A stretch of 64,000 nt of DNA from Candidatus Latescibacterota bacterium (GTDB taxonomy: Bacteria; Latescibacterota; UBA2968; GCA-2709665): contig OZ244937.1 of NCBI GenBank assembly GCA_965222075.1, positions 3,456,001-3,520,000 of the forward strand. Reading direction: 5' to 3'. Position numbers and translations under genes: made by a program. Below the pieces are notes generated by a model. The model saw only the letters and a list, made by a program, of their open reading frames with translations, was not told the origin of the DNA and did not search any database. This document shows, piece after piece, positions 1,290 through 20,567 of this stretch (positions are counted from its first letter, which is position 1; every line of letters starts with the position of its first letter).

Positions 1290-1413
1290 CGGAAAGGCCT
1301 CCTTCGTTGGAGTAGCAATTTCTCGTCCGATACTGCTAACTCCATCTATGGTAAGTCTTTCCGGTACTTTTGTGCACAAAAATCTCAAAAAACCCGCTTA
1401 CTTGGGGATTAGG
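1..1413 (-). mobile_element. IS1380-family insertion sequence, partial; end at about 1413 (CCTAATCCCC...)
   Basis: Transposase plus abrupt interruption of a cassette ORF at 1413/1414; other end lies outside the window. Confidence 0.75.
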
Positions 1414-1485: not shown

Positions 1486-1525
1486 CGCGTCGTGTGCGTT
1501 CATGTGAATTTTTACTCGCCATGTC

Positions 1526-1606
1526 GTCTAACGTCCCCGCCGTGCCCGAACCGCGAAGCGGTTGCGCGAAGGGCGTAGCCCGAAGCCGGGCACGGACGTG
1601 TTAGAC
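1526..1606 (-). repeat. attC site 1
   Basis: GTCTAAC...GTGCCCG...CGGGCAC...GTTAGAC with branched internal hairpins. Confidence 0.9.
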
Positions 1607-1663
1607 GGCGTTGGCCAAATCGTCACCACGGAGGAGATTTTTGGGCACACGGTTGCAGAGCGT

Positions 1664-3025
1664 TCAAAATGCCTCTTTCCCAACGATCTCGTAAACCCTC
1701 GCCGGATGGCGGTGATCTTTGACCTTATTGAATAGCGCTTTGGCCTTTTCCAGCATCCCGGCCCGTCCATAGAAGTAGATGAGGTTGCCAGCCTCGTTTG
1801 GTCTCCCAGTGAGGTCCCATACCTTCTCCTGCACGACCACGGCCCTGCCCCAATCACCCCTGTGGAATGCCAAACAGGACCCCATTTGCCGAAGTGCAAC
1901 GTAGGCCCATACGGTCTTTTGGCCTAGTCCGTACATGGTCTCATACACCGGATAGGCCTCATCCCACCGGTTCTGTCGAGCCAGTGACAAAGCGAGGTAG
2001 TTCAGGCACTGCTGGTCTTCAGGGGCCAAAGTGACGGCATGGCGGGCAACTTCCTCCATCTCTTCAAAGTCGCGTTTCCACAAAAACATCTGCGCCTTGG
2101 CAGTGAGAGCAACTATGTCATCAGGGTCCTTTGCAAGCCGCAGACTGCATAGCTCCAGGCATTTCTCGATTGCCGTGGCCTGCTTTTGCTGGTCGCCCGC
2201 CCATAAAACGGTAAGCTCGAACGCAACATCGATGGAGTCCGGCGCCGCTTTCGCGGCTCGTTGAAGGGTTGCCGCCTCTTCCTCGGAGGGGCCCTTGATC
2301 GGGTCATATGTCCGTCCGAGCTCCATCAATGCCTCAGGATGGTCCGGGGACACCTCCAGTGCTTCCCTGAAGCGTGCGCGTGCCTCATCCATCCTCATGT
2401 ACAATCGATCCCTCTTGCCCTGTTCCAAGAGTCGGGCAATGGTCCGTGCTGCGAATCCTTCGGGCAGATCATGCTTGCTCCTGTCATCTCTTGCCATGCG
2501 GGTGACCTCCTCCTTAAGCTGCCTGCGCGCCCTGTATAGCCGCTGTTTCACACCTGCAGGGGTCGTTCGTACCAGAAGAGCCACATCCTGAATCGAATAC
2601 CCTTCCAGATAATGCAGTGTAAACGCCTGGACGCTTTTCGCAGGAAGCCTTGAAAACAGTTCCTGGAACGCTGCATTCCGGATAACAGGCTGCTCTGGAT
2701 GTTCTCTGAGATCCGTCACCTCGACAACTGACTTCGCCACGGCTTGGTGGCGGCGATTGTCCCTCAACCTGTTGAGGCAGATGTTGCGAAGTATCTGCCC
2801 CACCCAGGATGAGAATCGAGAGTGCTCCTTCAGAGCCTCAAGCTGTTTGAAGGCCTTCAAGAATGCGTCCTGAAGAGCATCCTGTGCCTCTTCCTTAGCG
2901 TGCACATAACTTAGCGCCTGCAGGTAGAGGCGATCCTGATGGCGTAACACCAGGGCTTCGAATGCAGAAAGGCTGCCAGAGAGTGCGGCGGCGACTAGCT
3001 GGGCATCTGTGGATAGGCTTTCCAT
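1664..3025 (-). CDS. ECF sigma-70 factor with C-terminal TPR domain (cassette, copy 1)
   Basis: Region 2 (AFEALVLRHQ..AQDALQDAFLKAF..FSSWVGQILRN), region 4 (HYLEGYSIQDVA..VKQRLYRARRQL), then TPR-like helices; start placed at MESLSTD. Confidence 0.88.
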   Translation of the reverse strand: MESLSTDAQLVAAALSGSLSAFEALVLRHQDRLYLQALSYVHAKEEAQDALQDAFLKAFKQLEALKEHSRFSSWVGQILRNICLNRLRDNRRHQAVAKSVVEVTDLREHPEQPVIRNAAFQELFSRLPAKSVQAFTLHYLEGYSIQDVALLVRTTPAGVKQRLYRARRQLKEEVTRMARDDRSKHDLPEGFAARTIARLLEQGKRDRLYMRMDEARARFREALEVSPDHPEALMELGRTYDPIKGPSEEEAATLQRAAKAAPDSIDVAFELTVLWAGDQQKQATAIEKCLELCSLRLAKDPDDIVALTAKAQMFLWKRDFEEMEEVARHAVTLAPEDQQCLNYLALSLARQNRWDEAYPVYETMYGLGQKTVWAYVALRQMGSCLAFHRGDWGRAVVVQEKVWDLTGRPNEAGNLIYFYGRAGMLEKAKALFNKVKDHRHPARVYEIVGKEAF

Positions 3026-3117
3026 CGCTCTACCATTACGACACCTCAGGAGAGAGGAAGGTAACGCCGAGGAAGGATTCTTGCAGTAATCTCCGCCCGT
3101 TCGTGAGGGCAAATGCC

Positions 3118-3196
3118 GTATAACGTTCTCGGCACCCCCGAAGCCGCGAAGCGGTTTTGTGCGGAGCGAAGCGAAGCCGGGGGTGCCGTGTTAACC
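3118..3196 (-). repeat. attC site 2
   Basis: GTATAAC..GGCACCCCCG...CGGGGGTGCC..GTTAACC. Confidence 0.9.
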
Positions 3197-3260
3197 GATG
3201 TGGAGGTTTGTCGGATCACCAAAAAGTTCAAGAGGCAACCATCACCCCTTGCTTTTTTGT

Positions 3261-3566
3261 TCATTCATTTCCTGCCAGTGCTTCTGACCAACGCCTGGCC
3301 ATTGTCCTCAATTCTTCCTCATGGGCTGGCCAATCGTGAAGCGTGGCAGGATCAAAATCAGCACCATTCGGCCAGACGAGTGTATGCACCTCAGGATCAA
3401 TACGCACCTCATTAAAAAGCAATATATCCATCAGAGGTCCGAACAACTCGCCCTCAAGAACTGGACGAAAATCGATAACTCGAGTCGTTTCATCGTTGAA
3501 TCTGACTTTGATCTGATAGGTCCCAACAATCTCAAATGAAACGACTCGATAGATTGGATGACTCAT
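3261..3566 (-). CDS. DUF2442-family protein (copy 1)
   Basis: YQIKVRFNDETTRVIDF..GELFGPL..TLVWPNGADFDPATL motif. Confidence 0.85.
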   Translation of the reverse strand: MSHPIYRVVSFEIVGTYQIKVRFNDETTRVIDFRPVLEGELFGPLMDILLFNEVRIDPEVHTLVWPNGADFDPATLHDWPAHEEELRTMARRWSEALAGNE

Positions 3567-3577
3567 TCTATCCTCCC

Positions 3578-3847
3578 TTAATGAAGCGGATCGATCGGCA
3601 AGGGAGGATGCCCAGATTGGAGCCGACCCCAATCTTCAAGGAGCTCCTCCTGATGCAACTCCGCCCAGGCTTCGACGAATCGTTGCTGACGGCGTGGCAA
3701 AGTCCCTGCGATCAATTCAATGGTATCCACAGCGTAAACGGCCACTTCATCTTGATAATAGGCGTGAAAATGAGGCCGATGGTGCTGTGTTCTCGGTTCG
3801 GCAAACATGCGAATGATGATTCCGAAAAACCGAGAAATTTCAGGCAT
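3578..3847 (-). CDS. DUF4160-family protein (copy 1)
   Basis: MPEISRFFGIIIRMF..HHRPHFHAYY..WAELHQEELLEDW..IDPL motif; paired with DUF2442. Confidence 0.88.
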   Translation of the reverse strand: MPEISRFFGIIIRMFAEPRTQHHRPHFHAYYQDEVAVYAVDTIELIAGTLPRRQQRFVEAWAELHQEELLEDWGRLQSGHPPLPIDPLH

Positions 3848-3997
3848 TTGTTTTCCTTGCGATATGGATTTTATCGATGAAACCCTGCGGGAAATAAACC
3901 GGATTATGCATGGGTAAGCAAAATCCAAATTGGGATGAATGGGAGTCTGTTTTTGCCCCTCAGAGCTTGACCAATTAGCCCTTAAAACCTCCATGTC

Positions 3998-4081
3998 GGT
4001 TAACGTTCATCTGCCCCTGAACCGGCACAGCCGGTTGGGCGAAGGCCCGAATGGGCCGAAGCCAGGGGCAGGGTGTTATGC
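3998..4081 (-). repeat. attC site 3
   Basis: GGTTAAC..CTGCCCCTG...CAGGGGCAG..GTTATGC. Confidence 0.9.
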
Positions 4082-4201
4082 GGCCCCGAAGGGCCGGAGC
4101 GCCCGCAGGGTGCGGAGGGTGTGCATTCTACGCCTTGAGGACAGAAGTGCTTGGACTCTCATGCGGTGAAAAGATAATTCCCAAAGAATGAATTGCATTG
4201 G

Positions 4202-4930
4202 CTATTTGGCTTTCTCGATGACAGCTATATATCTTGGCCCCTCAGAATCAATAAAAGTAGAGGCCCTCCAACCTGTGCCAGCCAAAATATCGTGCAACTC
4301 CGCTTTGGACACAAACAGGTAATCAATCCACGGCGTTCTATGGATCTTATAGCGAATGCGCATCTTCACCTGACCCCCCATCCGACCTTGCTGACGATTG
4401 GCTCTGTGATAGGCATGGTGAAGAGGGTTCGAAGTCTGATAGGGATCCAAGGTCTCTGCGATAATGCGTCCTTTGCCAGTAGTCATGTGATAGAACTTAC
4501 GCAACAGCCACCTTGCCCGTCTGTAATTGCTCATCAGACCAAAATTGTTGCCCATCATGAGGAGGGTATCGAAGTGACCCAGGCGGGCATTCAATTGAGT
4601 GATCGACAATCTACGCACCTGCTTCACACCCCTCAATCGGCAGACCTTCACCGCCAGAGAAGATACATCGATCCCTATCACATCGTGTCCTTGATCCTGC
4701 AAATAGAGGGACATCCTCCCCGCGCCGCAGCCAATGTCTAAGGTACGCCCTATGACGTATCTCATGGCCTCCTGTTTCTGAGAGGGCCACTCTTCATAAG
4801 AAGAAAAATAGGCACTGGCCAAACTAGCGACATCAACGTACCCGTCGCTGCGCTCCACAATTTCGTATCTGTCATCCCCGCCTAAGAAATCGTAGAGTAG
4901 TTGACCGAATGCATCTGCATGTTGTTTCAT
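4202..4930 (-). CDS. Class I SAM-dependent methyltransferase (cassette)
   Basis: LDIGCGAGR motif I, VIGIDVS, FDTLLMMGNNFG. Confidence 0.88.
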   Translation of the reverse strand: MKQHADAFGQLLYDFLGGDDRYEIVERSDGYVDVASLASAYFSSYEEWPSQKQEAMRYVIGRTLDIGCGAGRMSLYLQDQGHDVIGIDVSSLAVKVCRLRGVKQVRRLSITQLNARLGHFDTLLMMGNNFGLMSNYRRARWLLRKFYHMTTGKGRIIAETLDPYQTSNPLHHAYHRANRQQGRMGGQVKMRIRYKIHRTPWIDYLFVSKAELHDILAGTGWRASTFIDSEGPRYIAVIEKAK

Positions 4931-5038
4931 GAGTTCACCGAAGATAGCCTCTTATTGGGGACATCTTGCATGGGGAATTCACTATCGGAATTTGAAGTAG
5001 GTAAAGCGTGGGGACAAATTTATCTTATTGCACATGCC

Positions 5039-5137
5039 GCATAACGTTCTCGCGGGCTGCGAACCTGCCGTAGCGAAGCGGAGGCAGGTTGGGTCGGAGG
5101 CGCGAATGCGCCGAAGCCGCAGCCCGTCGTGTTATGC
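5039..5137 (-). repeat. attC site 4
   Basis: GCATAAC..GGGCTGCG...CGCAGCCC..GTTATGC. Confidence 0.88.
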
Positions 5138-5298
5138 ATTGCTGGGGCAGGCCTCCGTCACCAAGAACCGTTCAGGGCCAACATACAGCGCACAACATTG
5201 TGTATGTTGCATCTTCCGACTCAGGTTCAATTTTCGATGGGTCTTGTAGCGGGGCGATGGGTAAACGAACAGAGGACTCTGCTTGCAAGGGGTCTCCG

Positions 5299-6291
5299 CT
5301 ATCCCAGTATAACAGCTATTCGGTTGTTCATATATTCGGTGATTTCCTTCAACTCCTGTTTGTTGTACGCCTCTTCAATGAGCCCCCAGCAGGTCAGGTA
5401 CCCAAGCGGATAGCGTAAACGATAGTACTCCAGGTGCAGCTCGTGGTCCTTATGAAGAGGGGCATCGTAGGATTTCCAAAAAGCCTCAAGACAGGAAGCC
5501 ATCAGATCCTCCCGATCGAATCCTAGATCATAGACCTCGTGGGAGAAGTGGTTGTACAATCTAGAAATATCCTGAATCCCGTACCCCGGCCCAACGCCCT
5601 CGAAGTCCAGCAGTCCCGTTACGGTATCTCGCGAAATCATGATGTTGGTTGCAGAGAAATCCCCGTGGGTTAGACAAGGCTGGACGTCTTCGCTAAAGAC
5701 CTCAATCCCTTTCCGGACCCAGCCCTCCAAGCGAGAACCCCATTTGGCAAAAGGGGTTTGAAAACTGGCTTTCACAATCTCTAATCCACGCTGTAGCTCA
5801 TATTCACGAGCTGTATGGCTGGTGTCGATTCCCTCCCGGGGTTTGACCCTGACCTCACCGTCTTTATATGCCAATCCTCCACCAAAGTGAGAGAAAGCAC
5901 TGATTTGGTGGAACGAAGAAAGTATTGTTCCAATCTGGGAATAGACAGCAACGGCTTCCTGGCGGGATAAACTCTCGCCCGCGTCTCCGAGGTTCTGCCC
6001 GTTGATGTACTCTTTGGTTACAAACTCCCCGGGCATGAGGCCAGCACGTAACCCTGTTTCGAGCACTTTGGGAACAGGAAGCTCAGTCTTGTCCTCCAGT
6101 ACGTTGATGACGAGGAGCTCGTGCTCAAGAGCATTAAGTTGACCGGGCGGGACATATTGGACCACAAATGGAGCAGTGTCCCTTGGGTGCACGAGATAAG
6201 TGGGTTTGCAGATGCCGCCTTCCAATTGCTCGAAATGCGCAATCGGTCTCCGGATAACCTCCTCAATGACATCAAGAGTCACTTCAGCCAT
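5299..6291 (-). CDS. APH/choline-kinase-like phosphotransferase (two-gene cassette)
   Basis: LPVPKVL, HGDFSATNIM, GLLDFE motifs. Confidence 0.85.
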   Translation of the reverse strand: MAEVTLDVIEEVIRRPIAHFEQLEGGICKPTYLVHPRDTAPFVVQYVPPGQLNALEHELLVINVLEDKTELPVPKVLETGLRAGLMPGEFVTKEYINGQNLGDAGESLSRQEAVAVYSQIGTILSSFHQISAFSHFGGGLAYKDGEVRVKPREGIDTSHTAREYELQRGLEIVKASFQTPFAKWGSRLEGWVRKGIEVFSEDVQPCLTHGDFSATNIMISRDTVTGLLDFEGVGPGYGIQDISRLYNHFSHEVYDLGFDREDLMASCLEAFWKSYDAPLHKDHELHLEYYRLRYPLGYLTCWGLIEEAYNKQELKEITEYMNNRIAVILG

Positions 6292-6321
6292 TTAGCCCCG
6301 TGTTGAGTTTGTTGTGCGGGA

Positions 6322-7113
6322 TCAGGATATCAGCTGCTTGGCCAAATCAATACCAGGATCATATCCCTCCAAAGCTGGTTCACCCTGAGAAACAGCAATG
6401 GTCGTGACCATTCGGTAGACCAGCGCGCGGATCAGTAGCTGGGGGAAGTGTTCAACGTGAGAGACATGCTCAATTAGACCTGACGGATCTGCATCCCGCC
6501 AACACACGGCATCCGCTACAACGATAGCAGACGCAAACCCAACTGGACGCCAATAGGGCGAAAAATCGATCACGGCCGGGGAAAGTCCTTCAGCGAAGAG
6601 GATATTCTCCGTAAGGTCACCGTGAATAAGCTGCGATGTGGTTACCATCGGGGAGCGCATGCGGAGTAACTCGGTGAGCCGCTTGTTTGCGAATGGCGGC
6701 TCTATCTCCTCCCAAGCTACAAAATCACCAAGTGACCAAGGATCATCTGAGCGATCGTCCAGGAATGGCGCCCGAGGCAGGTGCTCAATTGCCTTATGGA
6801 ATCGGTCTCCGGTGAGAATTACTTCTGCCCATCTTTCCTGCTCAGGGTGTTCGCCCTCAACCGCTTCTTGGGCACACCACCCGTCAACAACCCATCGTCC
6901 ATCGAAGGCCCGTACGGGAAGTGGCAGCCTAAAGCCTTCTGCTTTAACTGTTGATAGATGGTCGGCGAACCAACGCCAAACGTCAGGACTTTCGTCCGGT
7001 TTGAGGATAAGGTCTCCTGCCAGCCAGCAGCAACCCTCCCCGCCAGCTAGTTGTACCAAATCTGCGGTAACATTGAACGCTTGAATTACCCTATCAGGGG
7101 GCCGGGGGCTCAT
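6322..7113 (-). CDS. APH-like phosphotransferase (two-gene cassette)
   Basis: QLIHGDLTENILF, AVIDFSPYWRP motifs. Confidence 0.85.
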   Translation of the reverse strand: MSPRPPDRVIQAFNVTADLVQLAGGEGCCWLAGDLILKPDESPDVWRWFADHLSTVKAEGFRLPLPVRAFDGRWVVDGWCAQEAVEGEHPEQERWAEVILTGDRFHKAIEHLPRAPFLDDRSDDPWSLGDFVAWEEIEPPFANKRLTELLRMRSPMVTTSQLIHGDLTENILFAEGLSPAVIDFSPYWRPVGFASAIVVADAVCWRDADPSGLIEHVSHVEHFPQLLIRALVYRMVTTIAVSQGEPALEGYDPGIDLAKQLIS

Positions 7114-7184
7114 CTGTTATGATTCGGCAAGAGGTGGACATTCTTAGTTTGTGCGCAACTGTGGTGCTGTCTTGCCCCAGTTTT

Positions 7185-7301
7185 GCATAACGTTCTCGGC
7201 ACTCCCGACCTGCCGGCCTGTCCTCCGGAGCTGCGTAGCAGCGAAGGAGGGAGGCAGGTTTCTGCGGAGCGTCAGCGAAGCTCGGGAGTGCCGTGTTAAG
7301 C
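7185..7301 (-). repeat. attC site 5 (117 bp, nested palindromes in loop)
   Basis: GCATAAC..GGCACTCCCGA...TCGGGAGTGCC..GTTAAGC. Confidence 0.88.
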
Positions 7302-8344
7302 GCATGTGCTGGTTTTGGTGTCAGGAAATCGACTGGCGGTGCCGATCAATGGATCTTAACGAGCGAAATTCGTCCCAATGTTTAATCGAGGAAATATCAC
7401 CTGATGTCTTTATGGATCCGGGCCGATCATCTGATCTGTCGAAGTAGACCGCTTGCATACCGAGCTGCTTTGGTGCAGTATAATCGTTCTGTAGGCTGTC
7501 ACCGATGAATAAGACTCTATTGGCTTGATCAGCTTGCACATTCGCAAGCCCCTGTTGATAAATCTGTTTACCTGGCTTTTTCCATCCGAAGTCCGAGCGG
7601 GCGCGGTCCCATAGTGTGACAAAAAAGATAGCATAACATCCTCAATAATTTCTTATGGTTAGAGGAAAGTTTGGGAAATTTACTTCTAACCAACAAGAAT
7701 CAGAAAGGACGTTATGCTGGATCATATCATAGATCAAGTGACAGAAAAAGTCAACCAAAAGTTGCCTAAGATGGTGAGCGACTTGCAAGAGAGTCTTTCG
7801 TTTGCCGACTTGGAGCATGGCTTGATCGGTTTGCTCCAGGAGGTGGTGGGCATCGTCGTGAGTCCGGTGTTGAATCAGGTTTTTCAGGATGAGGCCTTGC
7901 TGTTTGGGCTGCGTCAGGCAGCCGGTAGTATGGGCTACAGATATAAGGAACATCGGCCTTTGACCGTACGGATTTTGGAAGGTGTAGAAGTTGAAGTCTC
8001 TTCGCCCTATTTCGTTAAGCGGGGTCGCAAACGGGGCAGGAAGAAGCGGGGTCCCAATGGTCGAGGGTGTCATCTGTTATTGGATGTGCTTGGGTTTATC
8101 GGTCAGTGCAGTCCGGAGTTTGTAGATGAAGCTGTGAAGTTGGCCTTGTTATGCCCCTCCTTTGAGGTGGCCACTCAGGTGTTGGATGCCCGTCAGATAA
8201 AGCTGGACAAAAAAACCCTTCGAAGATTGTGCAAAGCTTTAGGCGAATTGGGTCTGGAGCAGAGAGCCACGATTGCTCTAAAAGATGAGCTCTCCTTTTC
8301 AGGTCGCACGGTGTATATCGGCATCGATGGGGGTCGGATGCGGA

Positions 8345-8371
8345 CCTGCCCGCGCGCAGCGCGCAGGCGGG
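8345..8371. repeat. Micro-palindrome insertion 1 (27 bp, in frame)
   Basis: CCTGCCCGCGCGCAGCGCGCAGGCGGG between A|T. Confidence 0.8.
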
Positions 8372-8534
8372 TGCGTGAGCCCAAGCGGGGTCGAAAGCCG
8401 AAGGGAAAGAAATATCCCCGATATGATACACCTTGGAGAGAACCCAAGTTGTTTACCATCTACATGTTGGACGAAAAAGGTCGCGTCGAAAAATCGTGGA
8501 CGCCTATCCACGATGCGACTCGGGGCAATGCCGA

Positions 8535-8561
8535 CCTGCCTGTGCGGTGCACGCAGACAGG
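8535..8561. repeat. Micro-palindrome insertion 2 (27 bp, in frame)
   Basis: CCTGCCTGTGCGGTGCACGCAGACAGG between A|T. Confidence 0.88.
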
Positions 8562-8853
8562 TTTGATGTTTGAGATGCTGGAAGCTACCCTTTTGGAACT
8601 GCCCCTGCAACAGGCCGATCGGGTCGTGTTTATCGCCGATGGGGCAGAATGGATCTGGCCGAGGGTAGAGCGTCTGATCTGGAGGTTGGGGGTGCCTCCA
8701 AGCAAGGCGATCCAGATCCTCGACTATTACCATAATAGTGAAACCCTCTTTGAACTGGTGCAACTCCAACCGAAGCTTAAAGAAAAGGCACAACGTGCCC
8801 TGTATGAGACGTGGAAGACCTGGATGTGGAATGGGGAGCTTTTAAAACTCCGA

Positions 8854-8889
8854 CCTGCCTGTGCGTGCTGTCTCACGCACGCAGACAGG
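8854..8889. repeat. Micro-palindrome insertion 3 (36 bp, in frame)
   Basis: CCTGCCTGTGCGTGCTGTCTCACGCACGCAGACAGG between A|A. Confidence 0.88.
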
Positions 8890-8969
8890 AAAGAAGTGCT
8901 CCAGCAGCTTCGCGGGAAAAAACGAAAACAGGCCATCACATCCCTGAACCATTTCGACCGTCATGCGCA

Positions 8970-8994
8970 CCTGCCTGTGCCGATGGCAGACAGG
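8970..8994. repeat. Micro-palindrome insertion 4 (25 bp, frameshifting)
   Basis: CCTGCCTGTGCCGATGGCAGACAGG between A|T; removal restores HAHRMRYPTFK. Confidence 0.9.
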
Positions 8995-9035
8995 TCGAAT
9001 GCGCTATCCTACCTTCAAAGAACAGGGCCTTCCCA

Positions 9036-9062
9036 CCTGTCTGCGTGCCACGCACAGGCAGG
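9036..9062. repeat. Micro-palindrome insertion 5 (27 bp, reverse orientation)
   Basis: CCTGTCTGCGTGCCACGCACAGGCAGG between A|T; removal restores GLPIGSG. Confidence 0.9.
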
Positions 9063-9300
9063 TCGGAAGTGGACACGTCGAAAGCGCCATCCGTCGTGTC
9101 ATCAATCTTCGGATCAAAGCACCAGGCACGTTCTGGAAAAAAGACATGGGCGAATACTTCCTGTTTCTGCGCTCACAGTTGATCTGTGGAAGATGGCCTA
9201 TCTTCTTCCAGAATGTCACAGGACGATACCGAACGGGTGAGTTTGCCCAACATCTCTTTCCCTCTTCTCCGAAAATGGGTTTGCTCAAGACAGGGACAGA

Positions 9301-9325
9301 CCTGCCTGTGCCGCCGGCAGACAGG
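9301..9325. repeat. Micro-palindrome insertion 6 (25 bp)
   Basis: CCTGCCTGTGCCGCCGGCAGACAGG between A|T. Confidence 0.88.
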
Positions 9326-9935
9326 TGATCACTAACGCAATTAACCGCTTATTCAACAACTTAACACGACTTTCTATATGTCATACTTTGGGACTGCACC
9401 CAGTCCGAGCTGCCTAACATAAATTCAAAATATTTCCCAAGACCGGACTTTTGGATGCTCCGAGAAGGACCATCTGGAAGAAAGAAGTTCGACACGACAG
9501 CCAATCGGCACTTATCTATCCAGAAGTCGAGCATTTGCACAACGCCGGGTGTAAGTCTAAGGGTCTTGGGAAATTCCTGTTCGAAGTGCTCAATCATTTC
9601 ACAAACCAAACCTTCGATTTCACCTCTTCTCTCAGGGGCCTTCTCCTCAAGAACTGCACGGAAACGTTCCGGCAACGTAACTTCGCGCCAGGTCCCGTCG
9701 GACCACTGGTTCTCCCGCCACCTATCATAATCTTGCCTGAAATCAGTTGAAGAAGAATAGAACCCCGCCTCTACTGGCATGTGAGTGAGAAACCCGATCC
9801 CGGATTCATCTCCTGTGTCATCGAAATTGTCAATCAGTGTATTGAAGCAGTCGAAGAATATCCAATCAAACGAGCTCATTTTCCGGTATTTTGCACCCTT
9901 TGTCTTTTCGTTGAGCTAGCCAAAACCAACATTGC

Positions 9936-10014
9936 ACTTAACGTTCTCGGCACCCCCGAAGCCGCGAAGCGGTTTTGTGCGGAGCGAAGCGAAGCCGGGG
10001 GTGCCGTGTTAACC
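9936..10014 (-). repeat. attC site 6 (same body as attC2)
   Basis: ACTTAAC...GTTAACC; part of the duplicated cassette. Confidence 0.9.
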
Positions 10015-10078
10015 GATGTGGAGGTTTGTCGGATCACCAAAAAGTTCAAGAGGCAACCATCACCCCTTGCTTTTTTGT

Positions 10079-10384
10079 TCATTCATTTCCTGCCAGTGCT
10101 TCTGACCAACGCCTGGCCATTGTCCTCAATTCTTCCTCATGGGCTGGCCAATCGTGAAGCGTGGCAGGATCAAAATCAGCACCATTCGGCCAGACGAGTG
10201 TATGCACCTCAGGATCAATACGCACCTCATTAAAAAGCAATATATCCATCAGAGGTCCGAACAACTCGCCCTCAAGAACTGGACGAAAATCGATAACTCG
10301 AGTCGTTTCATCGTTGAATCTGACTTTGATCTGATAGGTCCCAACAATCTCAAATGAAACGACTCGATAGATTGGATGACTCAT
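10079..10384 (-). CDS. DUF2442-family protein (copy 2)
   Basis: Identical translation to 3261-3566. Confidence 0.85.
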   Translation of the reverse strand: MSHPIYRVVSFEIVGTYQIKVRFNDETTRVIDFRPVLEGELFGPLMDILLFNEVRIDPEVHTLVWPNGADFDPATLHDWPAHEEELRTMARRWSEALAGNE

Positions 10385-10395
10385 TCTATCCTCCC

Positions 10396-10665
10396 TTAAT
10401 GAAGCGGATCGATCGGCAAGGGAGGATGCCCAGATTGGAGCCGACCCCAATCTTCAAGGAGCTCCTCCTGATGCAACTCCGCCCAGGCTTCGACGAATCG
10501 TTGCTGACGGCGTGGCAAAGTCCCTGCGATCAATTCAATGGTATCCACAGCGTAAACGGCCACTTCATCTTGATAATAGGCGTGAAAATGAGGCCGATGG
10601 TGCTGTGTTCTCGGTTCGGCAAACATGCGAATGATGATTCCGAAAAACCGAGAAATTTCAGGCAT
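10396..10665 (-). CDS. DUF4160-family protein (copy 2)
   Basis: Identical translation to 3578-3847. Confidence 0.88.
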   Translation of the reverse strand: MPEISRFFGIIIRMFAEPRTQHHRPHFHAYYQDEVAVYAVDTIELIAGTLPRRQQRFVEAWAELHQEELLEDWGRLQSGHPPLPIDPLH

Positions 10666-10815
10666 TTGTTTTCCTTGCGATATGGATTTTATCGATGAAA
10701 TCCTGCGGGAAATAAACCGGATTATGCATGGGTAAGCAAAATCCAAATTGGGATGAATGGGAGTCTGTTTTTGCCCCTCAGAGCTTGACCAATTAGCCCT
10801 TAAAACCTCCATGTC

Positions 10816-10905
10816 GGTTAACGTTCTACCGATTGCCGAACCTGCGAAGCAGGTTGCCGAAGGCCAAGCGCCGAATGGCGCGCAGCGGCAAACGAGTTGT
10901 TAGAT
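10816..10905 (-). repeat. attC site 7
   Basis: GGTTAAC..TTGCCG...CGGCAA..GTTAGAT. Confidence 0.85.
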
Positions 10906-10945
10906 GAAGTGGGATCTAATTCGTATTCCAATATCAAACCACCTG

Positions 10946-11005
10946 GATTAAGGCTACAGCTCAGCCGCGGTGCTTGTCACCGTCGGCTGCAGTGCCTTGT
11001 TGGCC
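10946..11005 (-). repeat. Degenerate classical 60-bp attC inside the GNAT cassette
   Basis: Minus strand GGCCAACAAGGCACTGCAGCCGACGG...CCGCGGCTGAGCTGTAGCCTTAATC; R' mutated GTT to CTT; matching GTTGGCC upstream of the gene (11491-11497). Confidence 0.7.
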
Positions 11006-11476
11006 GTTTATTCCTTTGTCCAGGTCCAGTCTGTACCGGCATGTCGGCCCGAGTTCTCCTGGCTCCCGTTCGGTTTCGATGGTGTCGACGTATGTCGCCC
11101 CGATCAACTCACAGGTCCTTCTGGATGCGTCGTTATCGGGACGGCAAGTGATCAACAGCGAGTTCAGTCCATGGCTAAGAGCAAGGGGGAACAGGAGGCG
11201 GCAACTGCGGGCAGCACATCTGTTCCCACGGTATTCCTCCTGAACATCGTAGCTCAGGTTGCCTCCATACTGTTCGAGCCTTTCCGTGCACCGGGTCCTG
11301 AGGCAGATGCTGCCGATCGTCGCCCCGCTGCTAATAAGCCGCATCTCGAAACGGTACTCGGGCACCCGTCCCTTCTCAGAATCGGACGGAAGCGTCTCGG
11401 TGAGGACAAGCTCAAGATCTCCGTCGACCAAGTGTCCTGGATCGTGGAATTCACATTCGGGATTCTTCCGGGTCAT
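10961..11476 (-). CDS. GNAT-family acetyltransferase (cassette)
   Basis: GNLSYDVQEEYRGNRCA, LLITCRPDNDASRRTCELIGA. Confidence 0.85.
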   Translation of the reverse strand: MTRKNPECEFHDPGHLVDGDLELVLTETLPSDSEKGRVPEYRFEMRLISSGATIGSICLRTRCTERLEQYGGNLSYDVQEEYRGNRCAARSCRLLFPLALSHGLNSLLITCRPDNDASRRTCELIGATYVDTIETEREPGELGPTCRYRLDLDKGINGQQGTAADGDKHRG

Positions 11477-11579
11477 CCGGTATTCTCTGCGGCCAACTAG
11501 TGATTGAGCGGTGAATATGCAGAATATCTCCCGCTATCTGGAGATATTCTGCAATGATCTGATTTTACGTTTCCATTTC

Positions 11580-11667
11580 ATCTAACGTTCTCGGCACCCA
11601 CGAACCTGCCGGAGGTAGGTTGGGCGGAAGCCCGAACGGGCTGGAGCCGTGGGTGCTCGTGTTACGC
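11580..11667 (-). repeat. attC site 8
   Basis: ATCTAAC..GCACCCACG...CGTGGGTGC..GTTACGC. Confidence 0.88.
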
Positions 11668-11717
11668 GCCGTGTCTGTCCTGAGTACACACCAAAACAGT
11701 TCGGCCAAGTTCAAACT

Positions 11718-12359
11718 TCACGAGTACATCGACAGGTCATCCCAGTCCGAGGACAGCGTCGGTCGAGGTAGCTTCGGATCGGGGTGCCAGCCTTCCCACC
11801 CGGCGGAGAAGGGACCTACGTTCCGCTCAATCTCCTCGACCGCACGCTGCCCCTCTGCACGAATCGCAATGGCATCCTCGAGACTCACTCTCCCGTCCTG
11901 CACGCATATGTCGAGTTCGTCCTTGTCTTTCCATCTCCACTCTCGGTTTGGTTCAACGAGGATGTCAAGCTGATGGTCCCTCAAATCGAAGCCCAGCGGT
12001 GTGCGTGTTAGTCTGCTCTGCATGTTCACATACCACCCAGAGAACTCCCGATCTCTTGACCATATGACGCAAGTTGCCCGATGCTGATCGGGTCTGATGA
12101 CGATCAAGAGCTCGCCCCACTGCCAAGTCGAATCCTGAAGCGTCCAGTTGTCCTCGGTCCACCGCCGTGGCGTTCCTGGCGTATGGTTTAGCAGCACCGG
12201 ATTCTTTGTAGGTGTATCCATTGGGAGCCAGAGGACGATCTGGGTCTCAGAATCTTCGACTACGGTGACGGGCTTCACATCGATAATTTGGCCATGCTCA
12301 TCAGTTTCTCGATAGAGTATGCAATCACCACATCGGAACCTGTCAGCTCCTTCTCCCAT
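11718..12359 (-). CDS. DUF402-domain protein (cassette)
   Basis: FSGWYVNMQ..FDLRDHQLDILV..WRWKDKDEL motif. Confidence 0.85.
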   Translation of the reverse strand: MGEGADRFRCGDCILYRETDEHGQIIDVKPVTVVEDSETQIVLWLPMDTPTKNPVLLNHTPGTPRRWTEDNWTLQDSTWQWGELLIVIRPDQHRATCVIWSRDREFSGWYVNMQSRLTRTPLGFDLRDHQLDILVEPNREWRWKDKDELDICVQDGRVSLEDAIAIRAEGQRAVEEIERNVGPFSAGWEGWHPDPKLPRPTLSSDWDDLSMYS

Positions 12360-12416
12360 CTAGATTCTTCTCCTCCGAAAAATCAACCAGCCTGGCAAGA
12401 ATTCCTAAGGCATGGC

Positions 12417-12497
12417 GCGTAACGTCCCCGCCGTGCCCGAACCGCGAAGCGGTTGCGCGAAGGGCGTAGCCCGAAGCCGGGCACGGACGTGTTAGAC
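12417..12497 (-). repeat. attC site 9 (same body as attC1)
   Basis: GCGTAAC...GTTAGAC. Confidence 0.9.
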
Positions 12498-12554
12498 GGC
12501 GTTGGCCAAATCGTCACCACGGAGGAGATTTTTGGGCACACGGTTGCAGAGCGT

Positions 12555-13916
12555 TCAAAATGCCTCTTTCCCAACGATCTCGTAAACCCTCGCCGGATGG
12601 CGGTGATCTTTGACCTTATTGAATAGCGCTTTGGCCTTTTCCAGCATCCCGGCCCGTCCATAGAAGTAGATGAGGTTGCCAGCCTCGTTTGGTCTCCCAG
12701 TGAGGTCCCATACCTTCTCCTGCACGACCACGGCCCTGCCCCAATCACCCCTGTGGAATGCCAAACAGGACCCCATTTGCCGAAGTGCAACGTAGGCCCA
12801 TACGGTCTTTTGGCCTAGTCCGTACATGGTCTCATACACCGGATAGGCCTCATCCCACCGGTTCTGTCGAGCCAGTGACAAAGCGAGGTAGTTCAGGCAC
12901 TGCTGGTCTTCAGGGGCCAAAGTGACGGCATGGCGGGCAACTTCCTCCATCTCTTCAAAGTCGCGTTTCCACAAAAACATCTGCGCCTTGGCAGTGAGAG
13001 CAACTATGTCATCAGGGTCCTTTGCAAGCCGCAGACTGCATAGCTCCAGGCATTTCTCGATTGCCGTGGCCTGCTTTTGCTGGTCGCCCGCCCATAAAAC
13101 GGTAAGCTCGAACGCAACATCGATGGAGTCCGGCGCCGCTTTCGCGGCTCGTTGAAGGGTTGCCGCCTCTTCCTCGGAGGGGCCCTTGATCGGGTCATAT
13201 GTCCGTCCGAGCTCCATCAATGCCTCAGGATGGTCCGGGGACACCTCCAGTGCTTCCCTGAAGCGTGCGCGTGCCTCATCCATCCTCATGTACAATCGAT
13301 CCCTCTTGCCCTGTTCCAAGAGTCGGGCAATGGTCCGTGCTGCGAATCCTTCGGGCAGATCATGCTTGCTCCTGTCATCTCTTGCCATGCGGGTGACCTC
13401 CTCCTTAAGCTGCCTGCGCGCCCTGTATAGCCGCTGTTTCACACCTGCAGGGGTCGTTCGTACCAGAAGAGCCACATCCTGAATCGAATACCCTTCCAGA
13501 TAATGCAGTGTAAACGCCTGGACGCTTTTCGCAGGAAGCCTTGAAAACAGTTCCTGGAACGCTGCATTCCGGATAACAGGCTGCTCTGGATGTTCTCTGA
13601 GATCCGTCACCTCGACAACTGACTTCGCCACGGCTTGGTGGCGGCGATTGTCCCTCAACCTGTTGAGGCAGATGTTGCGAAGTATCTGCCCCACCCAGGA
13701 TGAGAATCGAGAGTGCTCCTTCAGAGCCTCAAGCTGTTTGAAGGCCTTCAAGAATGCGTCCTGAAGAGCATCCTGTGCCTCTTCCTTAGCGTGCACATAA
13801 CTTAGCGCCTGCAGGTAGAGGCGATCCTGATGGCGTAACACCAGGGCTTCGAATGCAGAAAGGCTGCCAGAGAGTGCGGCGGCGACTAGCTGGGCATCTG
13901 TGGATAGGCTTTCCAT
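12555..13916 (-). CDS. ECF sigma-70 factor with TPR domain (cassette, copy 2)
   Basis: Identical translation to 1664-3025. Confidence 0.88.
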   Translation of the reverse strand: MESLSTDAQLVAAALSGSLSAFEALVLRHQDRLYLQALSYVHAKEEAQDALQDAFLKAFKQLEALKEHSRFSSWVGQILRNICLNRLRDNRRHQAVAKSVVEVTDLREHPEQPVIRNAAFQELFSRLPAKSVQAFTLHYLEGYSIQDVALLVRTTPAGVKQRLYRARRQLKEEVTRMARDDRSKHDLPEGFAARTIARLLEQGKRDRLYMRMDEARARFREALEVSPDHPEALMELGRTYDPIKGPSEEEAATLQRAAKAAPDSIDVAFELTVLWAGDQQKQATAIEKCLELCSLRLAKDPDDIVALTAKAQMFLWKRDFEEMEEVARHAVTLAPEDQQCLNYLALSLARQNRWDEAYPVYETMYGLGQKTVWAYVALRQMGSCLAFHRGDWGRAVVVQEKVWDLTGRPNEAGNLIYFYGRAGMLEKAKALFNKVKDHRHPARVYEIVGKEAF

Positions 13917-14008
13917 CGCTCTACCATTACGACACCTCAGGAGAGAGGAAGGTAACGCCGAGGAAGGATTCTTGCAGTAATCTCCGCCCGTTCGTGAGGG
14001 CAAATGCC

Positions 14009-14103
14009 GTCTAACGTCTCACGGTTTGCGAACCCCGAGCTTGTCGAGGGGTTGCCGGAGGCCAAGGCGCGACAGCGCCGCAGCGAAAACCGCTGTGTTA
14101 TGT
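14009..14103 (-). repeat. attC site 10
   Basis: GTCTAAC..CGGTTTGCG...CGAAAACCG..GTTATGT. Confidence 0.85.
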
Positions 14104-14126
14104 GCTGTGCAATTCAAACGCAGTCA

Positions 14127-14951
14127 CTACCATGCCTCCGAGCGAGCAGGTTGCAGAGCAAATTGCGTGATTGTGTCGTGAGCCCGCCCCGTGCAGTCAT
14201 GATGCACATACACCGTGTCGTTGATGACGATTCGGCGATTGTCTGGATACTTGGCGACCAAGTCCCGGTCGCGGAAAAACCTCCCATCGTATCGCCGGAA
14301 GAAGACAGTCCTTCCACCTGCTTCAACGAAGGCTTCCACCAACTCGCCACCGTTTGGTGCGGAGAGTCCTGGAATGGCATCGAATACACGTAGACAGTGG
14401 AACCTGTGATCGCCGATAGTCACGTCGTAGGTTCCAGCACCAATCCCTTCCCCGTCTGTTGTTTTGTAGGATCCATCGCTCTGCCGCTCGTATTGGCCTC
14501 CGTCGATCATTCGACGGTTCATAACACCGCCCCAGTTGGCCTCGAAGTGCCTGTCGCCCTGCACCTCGACCAAGCGTTTGCCGTCTACGCTCCTCGTGAC
14601 ACCAACCCAACGCGCACCGACGTCATCCAACAGTGCGTACATATAGCCAGGATCGAATTCCAACGGGATGTCTTCACGCTTCACATGTTGTTCCACTCGA
14701 AGTTCGATACAATCGATGTCTCGGAGTGTAGCCGATCCTACGGACACGATTTTAACGACCTCTGTCAGCTCAAGTGTATCCGCTTCATACACGGCCCACT
14801 TGCAGTGTTCACCCAACCTGGGAACGGCAAACCACCACTGCAGTTCCGGGCAATTGACCTCTTGCAATCGCGCACTGCTTTCCTGGATCGTGACCTGTGG
14901 TCGGGTCAATGGAAAACCATCAACCATCTCGCTGCCGATTTCAGTGTTCAT
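14127..14951 (-). CDS. Hypothetical protein (cassette); start uncertain
   Basis: ORF fills the space between attC10 and attC11. Confidence 0.75.
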   Translation of the reverse strand: MNTEIGSEMVDGFPLTRPQVTIQESSARLQEVNCPELQWWFAVPRLGEHCKWAVYEADTLELTEVVKIVSVGSATLRDIDCIELRVEQHVKREDIPLEFDPGYMYALLDDVGARWVGVTRSVDGKRLVEVQGDRHFEANWGGVMNRRMIDGGQYERQSDGSYKTTDGEGIGAGTYDVTIGDHRFHCLRVFDAIPGLSAPNGGELVEAFVEAGGRTVFFRRYDGRFFRDRDLVAKYPDNRRIVINDTVYVHHDCTGRAHDTITQFALQPARSEAW

Positions 14952-14994
14952 AAGGACTGTAGGAGAGCGGCGCGGTCTTTGTCTTTTGCATGGC

Positions 14995-15092
14995 ACATAA
15001 CGATTTGACGGTTTGCGAACCCCGAGCTTGCCGAGGGGTTGCCCGAAGGGCCAAGGCGCGTAGCGGCGCAGCGCAACACCGTGCTGTTAGAG
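14995..15092 (-). repeat. attC site 11
   Basis: ACATAAC..CGGTTTGCG...CGCAACACCG..GTTAGAG. Confidence 0.85.
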
Positions 15093-15116
15093 GACGTGCA
15101 GGTAATCTCCCCGATC

Positions 15117-16151
15117 TCAGAGCGCTACCGTCGTCTCGTTCAATGTCCGAAGAAGCCTTCTCACTTCGGATTCATATGATGGTCCACCGTGCCCGATGGC
15201 CTTTCGTGCAGTCATTGTCCAAATGAGTTCCTGTAGGCTGTAAAGGAGATGAACCGACTCCCACGACGGCCCATGAAGTCCCCTTGTGTGCAGGTACTCA
15301 CTCCAAAGAGCCTTTCGAAACGCTGAAAAATCGTCTCGGTAGCGCCAAAGCTCTCCTCCCCACTCGCCGAAGTTAAACTCGAGGACGGGATTTCCCACAC
15401 CAGCGTTTCCCCAATCCAGGATCCCGGTTACTTCTAGGTCTCGATCTGACCGGACCAAGATCTGGTCTTCGTGGACATCACCGTGAAGAAGCACATTGTC
15501 CATCTTGGCAAGCTCTGAAAGGGCCTGTTGCCACTTGCCGATACTGGTTTCAGAAGTCAGCTCTTTGAATTCGTCCTCCGCGATATTGGTAGCGTGGTCC
15601 CGGACTAATGATGCAATTAAACTCAGCACTTCCCCCAAGGAACTCAATTGGAGCGCCTTGTACATCCATCGATACGAGTCGGCATGATCACCGGCGAGAT
15701 CCTGTGACAATGGTTTCAGGAAGTCTGTTTCCGGCCCCAATTGAAGGTTGTGCCAAAATCCCGCAAGCCGTCCAACTGTGCGGAGAACTTCTTCATAACC
15801 TTCCGAACGTAAGGATCGTTCGATCGTGCCAAGCAGCACCCCATGTAGGCGCGTGACAACTCCAAACCGGTAAAGGCTCAACTCGTAATTTTCGACCGAT
15901 CTGACGAGCTTGGAGACCGGCAACCCGTCCAGTTCATTGAACAGTTCATAAAGCTCAAGTTCGGTACTCAGTGAACACTGGTACTTGGGATGCCTTGGAA
16001 ATAGAAAGACGAGATCCGGGGACTTGATAATGTGCTTGGACCAGCCGGTAAAATCGGGTTCAAGCTCTCCGAGCGTCAGTCCGAACTCTTCACAGAAACG
16101 ATTGAGGTGAGGCCTGATCAAAATGGCTTCGATTGCCGCAGAGTTTTTCAT
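15117..16151 (-). CDS. APH-like phosphotransferase (cassette)
   Basis: LLHGDVHEDQILV, GILDWGNAGVGNP. Confidence 0.85.
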   Translation of the reverse strand: MKNSAAIEAILIRPHLNRFCEEFGLTLGELEPDFTGWSKHIIKSPDLVFLFPRHPKYQCSLSTELELYELFNELDGLPVSKLVRSVENYELSLYRFGVVTRLHGVLLGTIERSLRSEGYEEVLRTVGRLAGFWHNLQLGPETDFLKPLSQDLAGDHADSYRWMYKALQLSSLGEVLSLIASLVRDHATNIAEDEFKELTSETSIGKWQQALSELAKMDNVLLHGDVHEDQILVRSDRDLEVTGILDWGNAGVGNPVLEFNFGEWGGELWRYRDDFSAFRKALWSEYLHTRGLHGPSWESVHLLYSLQELIWTMTARKAIGHGGPSYESEVRRLLRTLNETTVAL

Positions 16152-16177
16152 GTCTTTGTGATCCGAACCTGCATGTC

Positions 16178-16307
16178 CTCTAACGTCCTCCGGGTTGCCG
16201 AAGTGGCCGTGCATAGGGAAAGGAACCAGTGGTTTTACAATCAGTCAAGCATAAACTCACGGCCATTTAGGCGTAGCGAAACGGAGCCGGTCAACCCGGT
16301 GTTAACC
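16178..16307 (-). repeat. attC site 12 (130 bp, AT-rich loop)
   Basis: CTCTAAC..CCGGGTTG..TGGCCGTG...CACGGCCA..CAACCCGG..GTTAACC. Confidence 0.82.
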
Positions 16308-19580: not shown

Positions 19581-20567
19581 CTATGAGCCTGAACCCCGCT
19601 CCCGGATGAGCTTCCAGGCGTCGGGAAACATGTTGTTGCCCGCGACCATCCACAGGGCGTCGTCGTAGACAAATACGCTGGCGGCGTGTCGGGGCGCCCA
19701 GCGGGTGTCCGGCAGTTCGCGCCAATCGATGCCGTCTGAAGAGTACCACACATCGGCGCGATTGCCGCTTATCCGGTCGCATCCCTCCAGCACCCACATT
19801 TTGTCGTCAAAGGCGGCTACCTCGTGGTACTGGCGCGGGGCCCAGGGGGCGGACGCCAGGTGCTGCTGCCAGTTGACGCCGTCCGCCGAGCTCCACACGT
19901 CGTTGTAATACTTCCTGTCGGGCGTGGTGGGCGTATCGTAGGTGCCTCCGCCCAGTATCCACATCCGGTTCTCAAATACAACGCTGCCACCGATCATACC
20001 CCGGGGCGGCCAGGGGGCTTTTTCGGTTACCCGCGTCCAGGTCACACCGTCGGAAGAGTTCCAGACATCGCTGTAGAACACCTCGGTAGCCGGTGCGAAT
20101 TGCAGGATGGTCTGCCCTCCCATGATCCAGATTTTGTTGTCGAAGACGAGGGTGTAGTGAAGGACGCGGGGGCCCCAGGGCACGTTGTCGTTGACGAGGT
20201 CCCAGTGGATTCCGTCGGAACTGCTCCACACGTCATTCTGGTAGTGGCCCTGGTTGGCGTCTCCCCCCACAATCCACATTCTGTCGTTGTGCACGGCATA
20301 TCCGGCCGTGTGCCTTCCTTCCCAGGGCGCCTGAACGGTCTCCAGCGTCCATGAAGCTCCGTCGCCGGAAGACCATACTTCGCTGTTGCAGATGTGGGGG
20401 AAATGGACTTTGTCGTCAGGATTCCAGCCGCCCAGTAGCCACATTCTGTCTTTGAAGACCAGCGCACCGGCGCCGTCGCGGCCGGCGAAAGCGGCGTTTT
20501 CGGTGATGCAACACCACTGATAGTCGGGCGATTCCTGAGAAGGCCCTGCAGCGAAACCATCTCCCAT
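19581..20567 (-). CDS. Kelch/galactose-oxidase-like beta-propeller protein
   Basis: Repeats of MW(I/L)GG...NDVWSSxDGxxW...APWxxR; AGGAGG RBS before ATG 20567. Confidence 0.85.
   Translation of the reverse strand: MGDGFAAGPSQESPDYQWCCITENAAFAGRDGAGALVFKDRMWLLGGWNPDDKVHFPHICNSEVWSSGDGASWTLETVQAPWEGRHTAGYAVHNDRMWIVGGDANQGHYQNDVWSSSDGIHWDLVNDNVPWGPRVLHYTLVFDNKIWIMGGQTILQFAPATEVFYSDVWNSSDGVTWTRVTEKAPWPPRGMIGGSVVFENRMWILGGGTYDTPTTPDRKYYNDVWSSADGVNWQQHLASAPWAPRQYHEVAAFDDKMWVLEGCDRISGNRADVWYSSDGIDWRELPDTRWAPRHAASVFVYDDALWMVAGNNMFPDAWKLIRERGSGS

Follow-up and report, generated by a model that had tools for sequence, protein, structure and literature searches.

The first 16,300 bases of the window, by which we mean the whole 64-kb stretch of DNA that was analysed, are taken up by an integron-type cassette array read on the minus strand. 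One of its cassettes, 764 nt long, carries a GNAT acetyltransferase gene whose recombination signals lie inside those of the cassette itself. Its parts, together with the attC of the cassette that precedes it, are the following:

11580..11667, minus strand: local-format attC of the preceding DUF402 cassette, 88 nt, 82.8 bits with model R2
10822..11585, minus strand: composite cassette, 764 nt, comprising leader, GNAT gene, inner attC, spacer and outer local attC
11498..11586, minus strand: leader module A, 89 nt, with a conserved hairpin, ending ...CAATCACTA before G|TT
11518..11553, no strand assigned: palindrome TGCAGAATATCTCC / GGAGATATTCTGCA, perfect over 14 bp, with an 8-nt loop, forming the hairpin of leader A
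11491..11497, minus strand: GTTGGCC, where leader A meets the inner cassette, whose R'-type start it forms
10961..11476, minus strand: GNAT gene, 171 aa, Acetyltransf_3
10946..11005, minus strand: inner attC of class-1 type by sequence models R1 and R3 and by its fold, 60 bp
10906..10945, minus strand: spacer C, between the inner and outer attCs, ending in the extended R'' box GATCCCACTTC
10816..10905, minus strand: outer local-format attC, 90 nt, 79.6 bits with R2, fold z -3.3

Every element described in the first-pass annotation was found where it had been placed, and all of them are features of a minus-strand cassette. The composite cassette starts at the mark set by the R' G of the DUF402-cassette attC (11586) and is closed by the crossover G of the outer attC (10822), after which the next cassette begins GTTAACCGACATG. 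The palindrome arms occupy 11518-11531 and 11540-11553, and GTTGGCC, read from 11497 to 11491, lies 14 nt 5' of the ATG at 11476. At the other end of the gene, the R'' box of the inner attC (GGCCAAC, 11005 to 10999) starts 45 nt ahead of the GNAT stop, the final 15 codons being read from the attC, and the expected place of R' (10952 to 10946) is held by the relic CTTAATC. The GNAT reading frame matches PF13302 (E 1.7e-6), with no NCBIfam name and no solved relative for the protein. In the protein homologues P0002, P0005, P0010, P0014 and P0016 the tail is GQ...AD, which agrees with a gene end encoded by GGCCAA...GCCGAC. In metatranscriptome data, one contig covers positions 11815-12011 only, in the gene neighbouring the GNAT cassette.

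The nearest relatives of the GNAT locus are metagenome-assembled genomes of Candidatus Latescibacterota, and the host genome has 59% G+C. A covariance model built from eight local attC sites of the window (R2) recovered 13 local sites of 79-130 nt in the window. Local-format attCs were recognised by a length of 79-117 nt, their TAAC...GAACGTTA ends and R2 score, and the 60-bp inner site falls outside this format, being absent from the R2 matches. An HMM made from the same eight-site alignment gave ~53 local attC matches in at least five clusters of the 5.36-Mb genome, while a profile search of that genome found no integron integrase above the TIGR02249 cut-off; an integrase was present in one of the 22 genomes of the family (G042). 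Such a setting resembles a CALIN, that is, an array of attC sites without integrase, although this concept covers the array only and not the nested GNAT unit. Elsewhere in the same genome (C1:5295088-5301384), seven local attC matches are clustered beside a 148-aa open frame whose match to the integron-integrase model is limited to positions 87-176 (69.5 bits), probably a decayed integrase next to its own array.

The inner site was scored with a covariance model (R1) of five intact short attCs, one from a plasmid class 1 integron and four from other genomes of the phylum, the window site being excluded. Over the 64 kb, R1 returned exactly 10946-11005 on the minus strand, at full length, with 49.9 bits and E 5e-11 (a rough value, as are all E-values given here for R1 and R3, which are small models of our own made from few and similar sequences, and not the IntegronFinder model); the next match reached 12.3 bits, and the best one overlapping a local attC 11.6 bits. 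Since the R1 members were partly picked by likeness to the window site, and L141 and L142 had been found through that very site, a further model (R3) was built only from plasmid class 1 attCs, namely those following aadA2, aadA16, aadB, catB3, aac(6')-IIa and an oxidoreductase cassette. R3 likewise placed the inner site first in the window (22.4 bits, E 0.0026), with unchanged coordinates, and the second match had 17.7 bits. The covariance scoring that the first-pass annotation had suggested therefore puts the site at the top of the window with both models, and not in the background. Homologues carry the site as well, and both parts of the refutation proposed in that annotation are thus contradicted. 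The second R3 match (19707-19782, plus strand, E 0.049; 10.7 bits with R1) lies outside the array, in a Kelch-repeat reading frame, and is probably due to chance.

The predicted fold agrees with these scores. The bottom strand of the inner site folds at -16.8 kcal/mol (z -4.05), none of 200 shuffles being as good, and its two single-base bulges sit as they do in the plasmid attC L147. When compared with the R'' consensus RYYYAAC, the GGCCAAC box, which aligns to model positions 1-7, has the AAC and fits at six of seven positions; the R' consensus GTTRRRY, with its invariant GTT, is broken by CTTAATC, so that the R' of the window copy is inactive, as had been claimed. Together with its preceding base, R'' (CGGCCAAC) is an exact complement of GTTGGCCG 5' of the GNAT gene (8/8). 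Counts in the 5.36-Mb genome are 517 for GTTGGCC and 542 for its complement, so that a matched pair flanking one gene is not expected by chance.

The link to class 1 integrons was reached through relatives. The inner 71 nt, when compared with plasmids by BLAST, returned noise only (E >= 2), and similarity to class 1 attCs emerged via the relative L142 (E 0.01) and via the models only. A DNA search across the phylum yielded L141 and L142, both of which resemble the inner site and have intact ends. Starting from one of them we arrived at a Citrobacter plasmid and there at the attC of a class 1 integron's first cassette, which lies beside intI1. The inner site aligns to the plasmid class 1 attC without gaps and at equal length; 4914 plasmid records matched this attC family. 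The gene family is found in cassettes elsewhere too, R1 matches adjoining the GNAT homolog in three other loci (L030, L034 and L036). As in the 60-bp attCs of the aadA2/aadB/catB3 type (the "59-base element"), the window site has this length, the order R'', two-bulge stem, small loop and R', and the AGCCGACG...CGCGGCT core. It differs from them in that its R' has CTT instead of GTT, one pair of the stem is broken, a different base is bulged at the second position, a reading frame enters the site for 45 nt, and its host is an uncultured Latescibacterota-like genome with no mobile integron. Judged by family membership, then, positions 10946-11005 are a true class-1-type attC, disabled in the window copy. 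The core-motif pattern was found in none of the 21 other genomes of the family, which indicates that a class-1-type 60-bp attC is foreign to the arrays of this family, as the first-pass annotation had proposed for the local ones. Across 168 genomes the same pattern showed no enrichment over a reversed control, the real sites being short-gap matches only.

In other samples the inner site still has its crossover triplet. The block from 10855/10858 to 11574 is present in contigs from three runs of three studies; where one contig covers all of it (X9 and X12), its ~720 nt differ from the window at 10-11 positions. In all three runs, as read from assembled contigs and not from reads, plus-strand position 10952 is C against G in the window, giving GTTAATC as R' on the cassette strand, and position 10993 is C against T in the window, restoring a G-C stem pair, the one marked as broken in the window by the models. 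The version with intact GTT that the first-pass annotation had recommended searching for does exist, and given the GTT in contigs of three other studies the window copy is a derived, disabled version of a unit that elsewhere apparently carries a complete inner attC.

Among related genomes the decay took other routes. The crossover triplet is CTT in the window, TTT in L079 and GGT in L081, and R'' lesions are also seen (GGCCACC in L079, GGCGAATC in L081). In L011 and L080 the whole 3' part was lost by a deletion that fuses the GNAT gene to the gene of the next cassette; this deletion (1940-1990 of these loci) starts near GNAT codon 153, ends in the 5' region of the following cassette and takes both attCs with it. 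Rearrangement breakpoints at the inner site or within ~25 nt of it were found in three of five GNAT-bearing genomes (L079, L082 and L080), which fits an active or fragile hairpin. Contig joints skipping 655-782 nt were considered as excision products and rejected, their sides matching over 20-22 letters only, in repeated attC sequence. The composite cassette of L081 has different neighbours from that of the window, and a copy of the gene from Planctomycetaceae (L083), with no visible array around it, retains GTTGGCC and GGCCAAT and is devoid of the leader.

The palindrome upstream of the gene had been taken as part of a foreign upstream att site that arrived with it. Our data indicate otherwise: it is the core of the 89-nt leader, and in the phylum search 12 other genomes had a match confined to the cassette's first ~50-104 nt and hold the leader without the GNAT gene. 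The host genome has a single leader copy. In the copies examined the leader is always the start of a cassette and follows the G|TT of a local attC, except for two cases in which an insertion sequence stands there instead (L134 and L136, with transposases upstream). In an alignment of 17 copies the hairpin is kept, two of its 12 predicted pairs being changed on both sides; since the paired columns hold both G-U and A-C cells, the folding strand is not settled, and the 89 nt of the window copy fold on either one (z -4.1 plus, -4.7 minus; 0/200 shuffles as good). The conserved end ...CAATCACTA GTT is found in 9 of 11 contexts without the GNAT gene. What follows the leader differs from context to context. 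None of the first reading frames in the ten contexts scanned matched the GNAT family, the payloads being a TehB-type methyltransferase, an ANT(6)-type adenylyltransferase, PIN_12, a weak DUF4037, TPR/S41 and five frames without Pfam match. A conserved leader thus recurs before at least ten unrelated cassette genes and is a separate local module and not foreign DNA.

Searches for a known function of the leader gave little. An attI was considered and rejected: no intI lies beside any leader copy examined, the 3' end has no recognisable attI or attC architecture, and neither leader-like sequence nor local attCs were found beside the only intI of the family (G042). Rfam returned for the leader nothing at gathering score, only a chance match to mir-216 (E 1.1), and scans of 10780-11720 with Rfam and for sigma-70 promoters and terminators gave nothing usable. 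A mini-ORF (MKWEK) with which the leader begins shows no conservation among the copies.

We propose that the locus is a nested, now fused, cassette, in which a foreign GNAT cassette was inserted by an integrase at an internal GTT of a local cassette, and we give this reading a probability of about 0.68. The first-pass annotation was right in that the inner unit is a former cassette with its own class-1-type 60-bp attC, embedded in a cassette with local-format ends. What is observed is the parts and the families they belong to, the sequences at the junctions and the intact-GTT version in other samples; from these we infer an order of events, a role for the integrase and a gene-less carrier. The starting point would have been a circularised acetyltransferase cassette whose attC was short and of class-1 type, and an integron integrase would have inserted the circle at the GTT that closes the 89-nt leader of a local cassette, probably one without a gene, made up of leader, spacer and 90-nt local attC. 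A circle cut at G|TTGGCC and entering a G|TTAATCC target would give exactly the two junctions seen, in the order leader...CACTAG|TTGGCC-GNAT-inner attC-G|TTAATCC-spacer-outer attC. The composite would then move only as one unit, via the outer local attC. In the host genome the GTT of the inner site would later have turned into CTT and one of its stem pairs would have been lost, locking the gene in, and the reading frame would have come to run 15 codons into the dead site.

Part of this sequence of events has experimental parallels. According to a preprint, integron integrases use bare GWT sites of the genome at high frequency in experiments, and cassettes left at such sites can decay in place (bioRxiv 10.1101/2022.09.11.507474).

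The same boundaries would also be produced by three cassettes in tandem without any nesting: a gene-less mini-cassette consisting of the 89-nt leader, a GNAT cassette whose short attC, the middle one, decayed, and a 124-nt cassette, also gene-less, of spacer and local attC. Both inner boundaries are indeed G|TT junctions, GTT stands on both sides of the leader in most copies, and the bases after the leader GTT resemble ordinary cassette starts (for example, GTTATGC and GTTAAGT). The leader, nonetheless, is structurally no attC, for it has no R'' box and no attC geometry, its hairpin lying 20 nt from the GTT. The matching of cassette ends points in the same direction. In all 11 cassettes of the array the start complements the R'' context of its own attC over 8-17 nt, with one mismatch allowed (mean 10.6 for own pairs against 5.1 for non-own pairs), a rule that shows which start belongs to which attC. 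The composite start GTTAGATGAAATGG pairs with the R'' context of its own attC, GATCCCACTTCATCTAAC, over 13 nt with one mismatch; with the 8/8 of the inner unit, the ends match at both nesting levels. The R'' context of the outer attC matches the start of the leader and not that of the spacer. Moreover, leader start and R'' covary, ATAGG occurring with CCTAC (L143), GTTAAAT with ATTTAAC (L173) and GAT with ATC (L130 and L177), and the nine leader cassettes that have a downstream attC comprise five with a clear extended match, two with a short covarying one and two with none. Based on this matching and covariation, and on a leader devoid of attC geometry, we take leader and outer attC as the two ends of one cassette with the GNAT unit inside, and we consider the tandem arrangement unlikely. 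In L130 (1499-1505 and 2557-2570) and L177 (140-150 and 1247-1253), the cassette starts with GAT for GTT and its own R'' has ATC for AAC, a compensating double change in crossover triplets that are supposedly invariant.

The nested reading gains from L139, in which the same leader, spacer C and outer attC subfamily surround a methyltransferase gene and homology stops at the same two points as in the GNAT composite. Homologues of spacer C were found in L081 and, with this different payload, in L139; a search with the spacer-C pattern retrieved only two genomes. Beyond the GNAT unit, evidence for an inner attC comes at best from remnants. The candidate inner attC of L139 was rejected (9.5 bits, z +0.95, no fold), as was that of L172, an 8-mer R'' match with no hairpin; no inner attC was found in L130, and R1 gave nothing below E 0.3 in the other leader cassettes. 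The search for a gene-less carrier made of leader and spacer found none, L143 having turned out to be merely a truncated look-alike. Other points also tell against the nested reading: the host genome has no integrase above the cut-off, the 3' end of the leader shows no att-like architecture that would account for the repeated use of its GTT, the leader start goes unmatched by the following R'' in two of the nine leader cassettes, and R1 also gives a high score to an intergenic hairpin lacking R boxes (L167).

A further explanation, close to what the first-pass annotation had in mind, is that we are seeing a cassette being formed de novo, with foreign integron DNA and part of its att site packed between new local ends. 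Genes of unrelated kinds are indeed flanked by the same leader and by similar local attCs, and some lack any inner attC (L130), a pattern that could mean a process adding standard ends to genes. This account is made improbable by the palindrome, which is local and did not arrive with the gene, and by the inner cassette, whose ends complement each other as in a finished cassette. Moreover, the two junctions, the second of them as read in the three other runs, fall exactly at G|TT, where integrase recombination normally crosses over; an ordinary insertion at a GTT target would yield them, and packaging between new ends need not be invoked.

It may also be asked if the hairpin at the end of the gene has been kept for a role in RNA, as terminator or as stabiliser of the mRNA 3' end, its likeness to an attC being secondary or exapted. 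In L079 and L081 the R boxes have decayed and the hairpin persists, and a very similar one without R boxes is found in the host genome (C1:4083040-4083070; L167:1488-1548, minus strand), between two housekeeping-type genes and followed by CTTTTCC. The latter scores 38.4 bits with R1, has neither R'' nor R' and resembles the intact site in L149; possibly it is what remains of an orphan attC and now serves as a terminator-like stem. At the GNAT gene, by contrast, there was no terminator-like call at 10946-11005, the tail is CCTTAATCC with no U tract, and the reading frame passes through the hairpin in the window copy. An RNA role would also leave unexplained the R'' box, its 8-nt match to the cassette start and the GTT in other samples, and we regard it as improbable. 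Chance resemblance, conceivable in that the two 7-mers are common in this genome of 59% G+C, is refuted by the R1 and R3 scores, the folds, the complementarity of the ends and the conserved GTT copies.

The nested arrangement has partial counterparts among known systems. Inactivated or truncated attCs are known to join cassettes into fused or "unusual" ones (types of Partridge et al. 2009, as presented in PMC12901181; see also PMC4670013). As in those, one attC is inactivated and two units travel together, but here the GNAT unit is nested between the parts of a single carrier instead of standing in tandem with it, the carrier parts contain no gene, and the two attCs belong to different structural types. 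The insertions at attG (GWT) sites reported in bioRxiv 10.1101/2022.09.11.507474 are similar in that a GTT outside canonical attI and attC sites is used and that later decay of the attC ("domestication") is expected. They differ in that the target here lies within another cassette, that the gene regains mobility through the attC of the carrier and that the same target position recurs with different payloads. Three features of our locus go beyond these accounts: a unit nested in a small carrier, an attC that changes type, and a target that is used again and again.

These features bear on how cassettes form and on how imported genes acquire the attC type of their host. Two stages occur in natural sequence, a GTT-bearing foreign cassette inside a local one (other samples) and the same unit with its inner site disabled (window). 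As both stages are found in nature, the "conversion" of a foreign cassette into a local one becomes testable with defined natural variants, the locus being a natural before-and-after pair for such "reformatting".

Sedentary chromosomal integrons have strikingly uniform attC sites. A more general reading, which we put forward only tentatively and which may well prove wrong, is that the 89-nt leader and a local attC make up an "adaptor cassette", a small mobile chassis whose internal GTT would be a preferred landing site. Cassettes with foreign attCs would be captured by it, gain an attC of host format and be mobilised again while losing their own site. If this holds, the adaptor would be a route by which chromosomal arrays import genes and yet keep their attCs uniform, and the leader would be a recombination site, or an expression module, of a kind new to integrons.

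Some features of the surrounding array may also be mentioned. Its local cassettes (1526-16307) have very long R boxes, and the complementarity of their first 8-17 nt to their own R'' context reaches 18/20 in one case. CATG is usual in the local R boxes, ~10 nt after the GTT, and several genes have their start codon inside the box. Parts of the array are duplicated, as seen when window positions 1520-3420 were compared with 9939-14003: the sigma-70/TPR gene at 1664-3112 recurs at 12555-14003 with 99-100% identity over the 300 nt compared, and a DUF2442/DUF4160 pair occurs twice with identical ORF lengths (3261-3994 and 10079-10812). A DDE transposase lies at the start of the window (3-1388). 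Two cassette genes belong to the APH phosphotransferase family (PF01636; 5299-6291 and 15117-16214, minus strand), and the same array has a methyltransferase cassette at 4202-4930.
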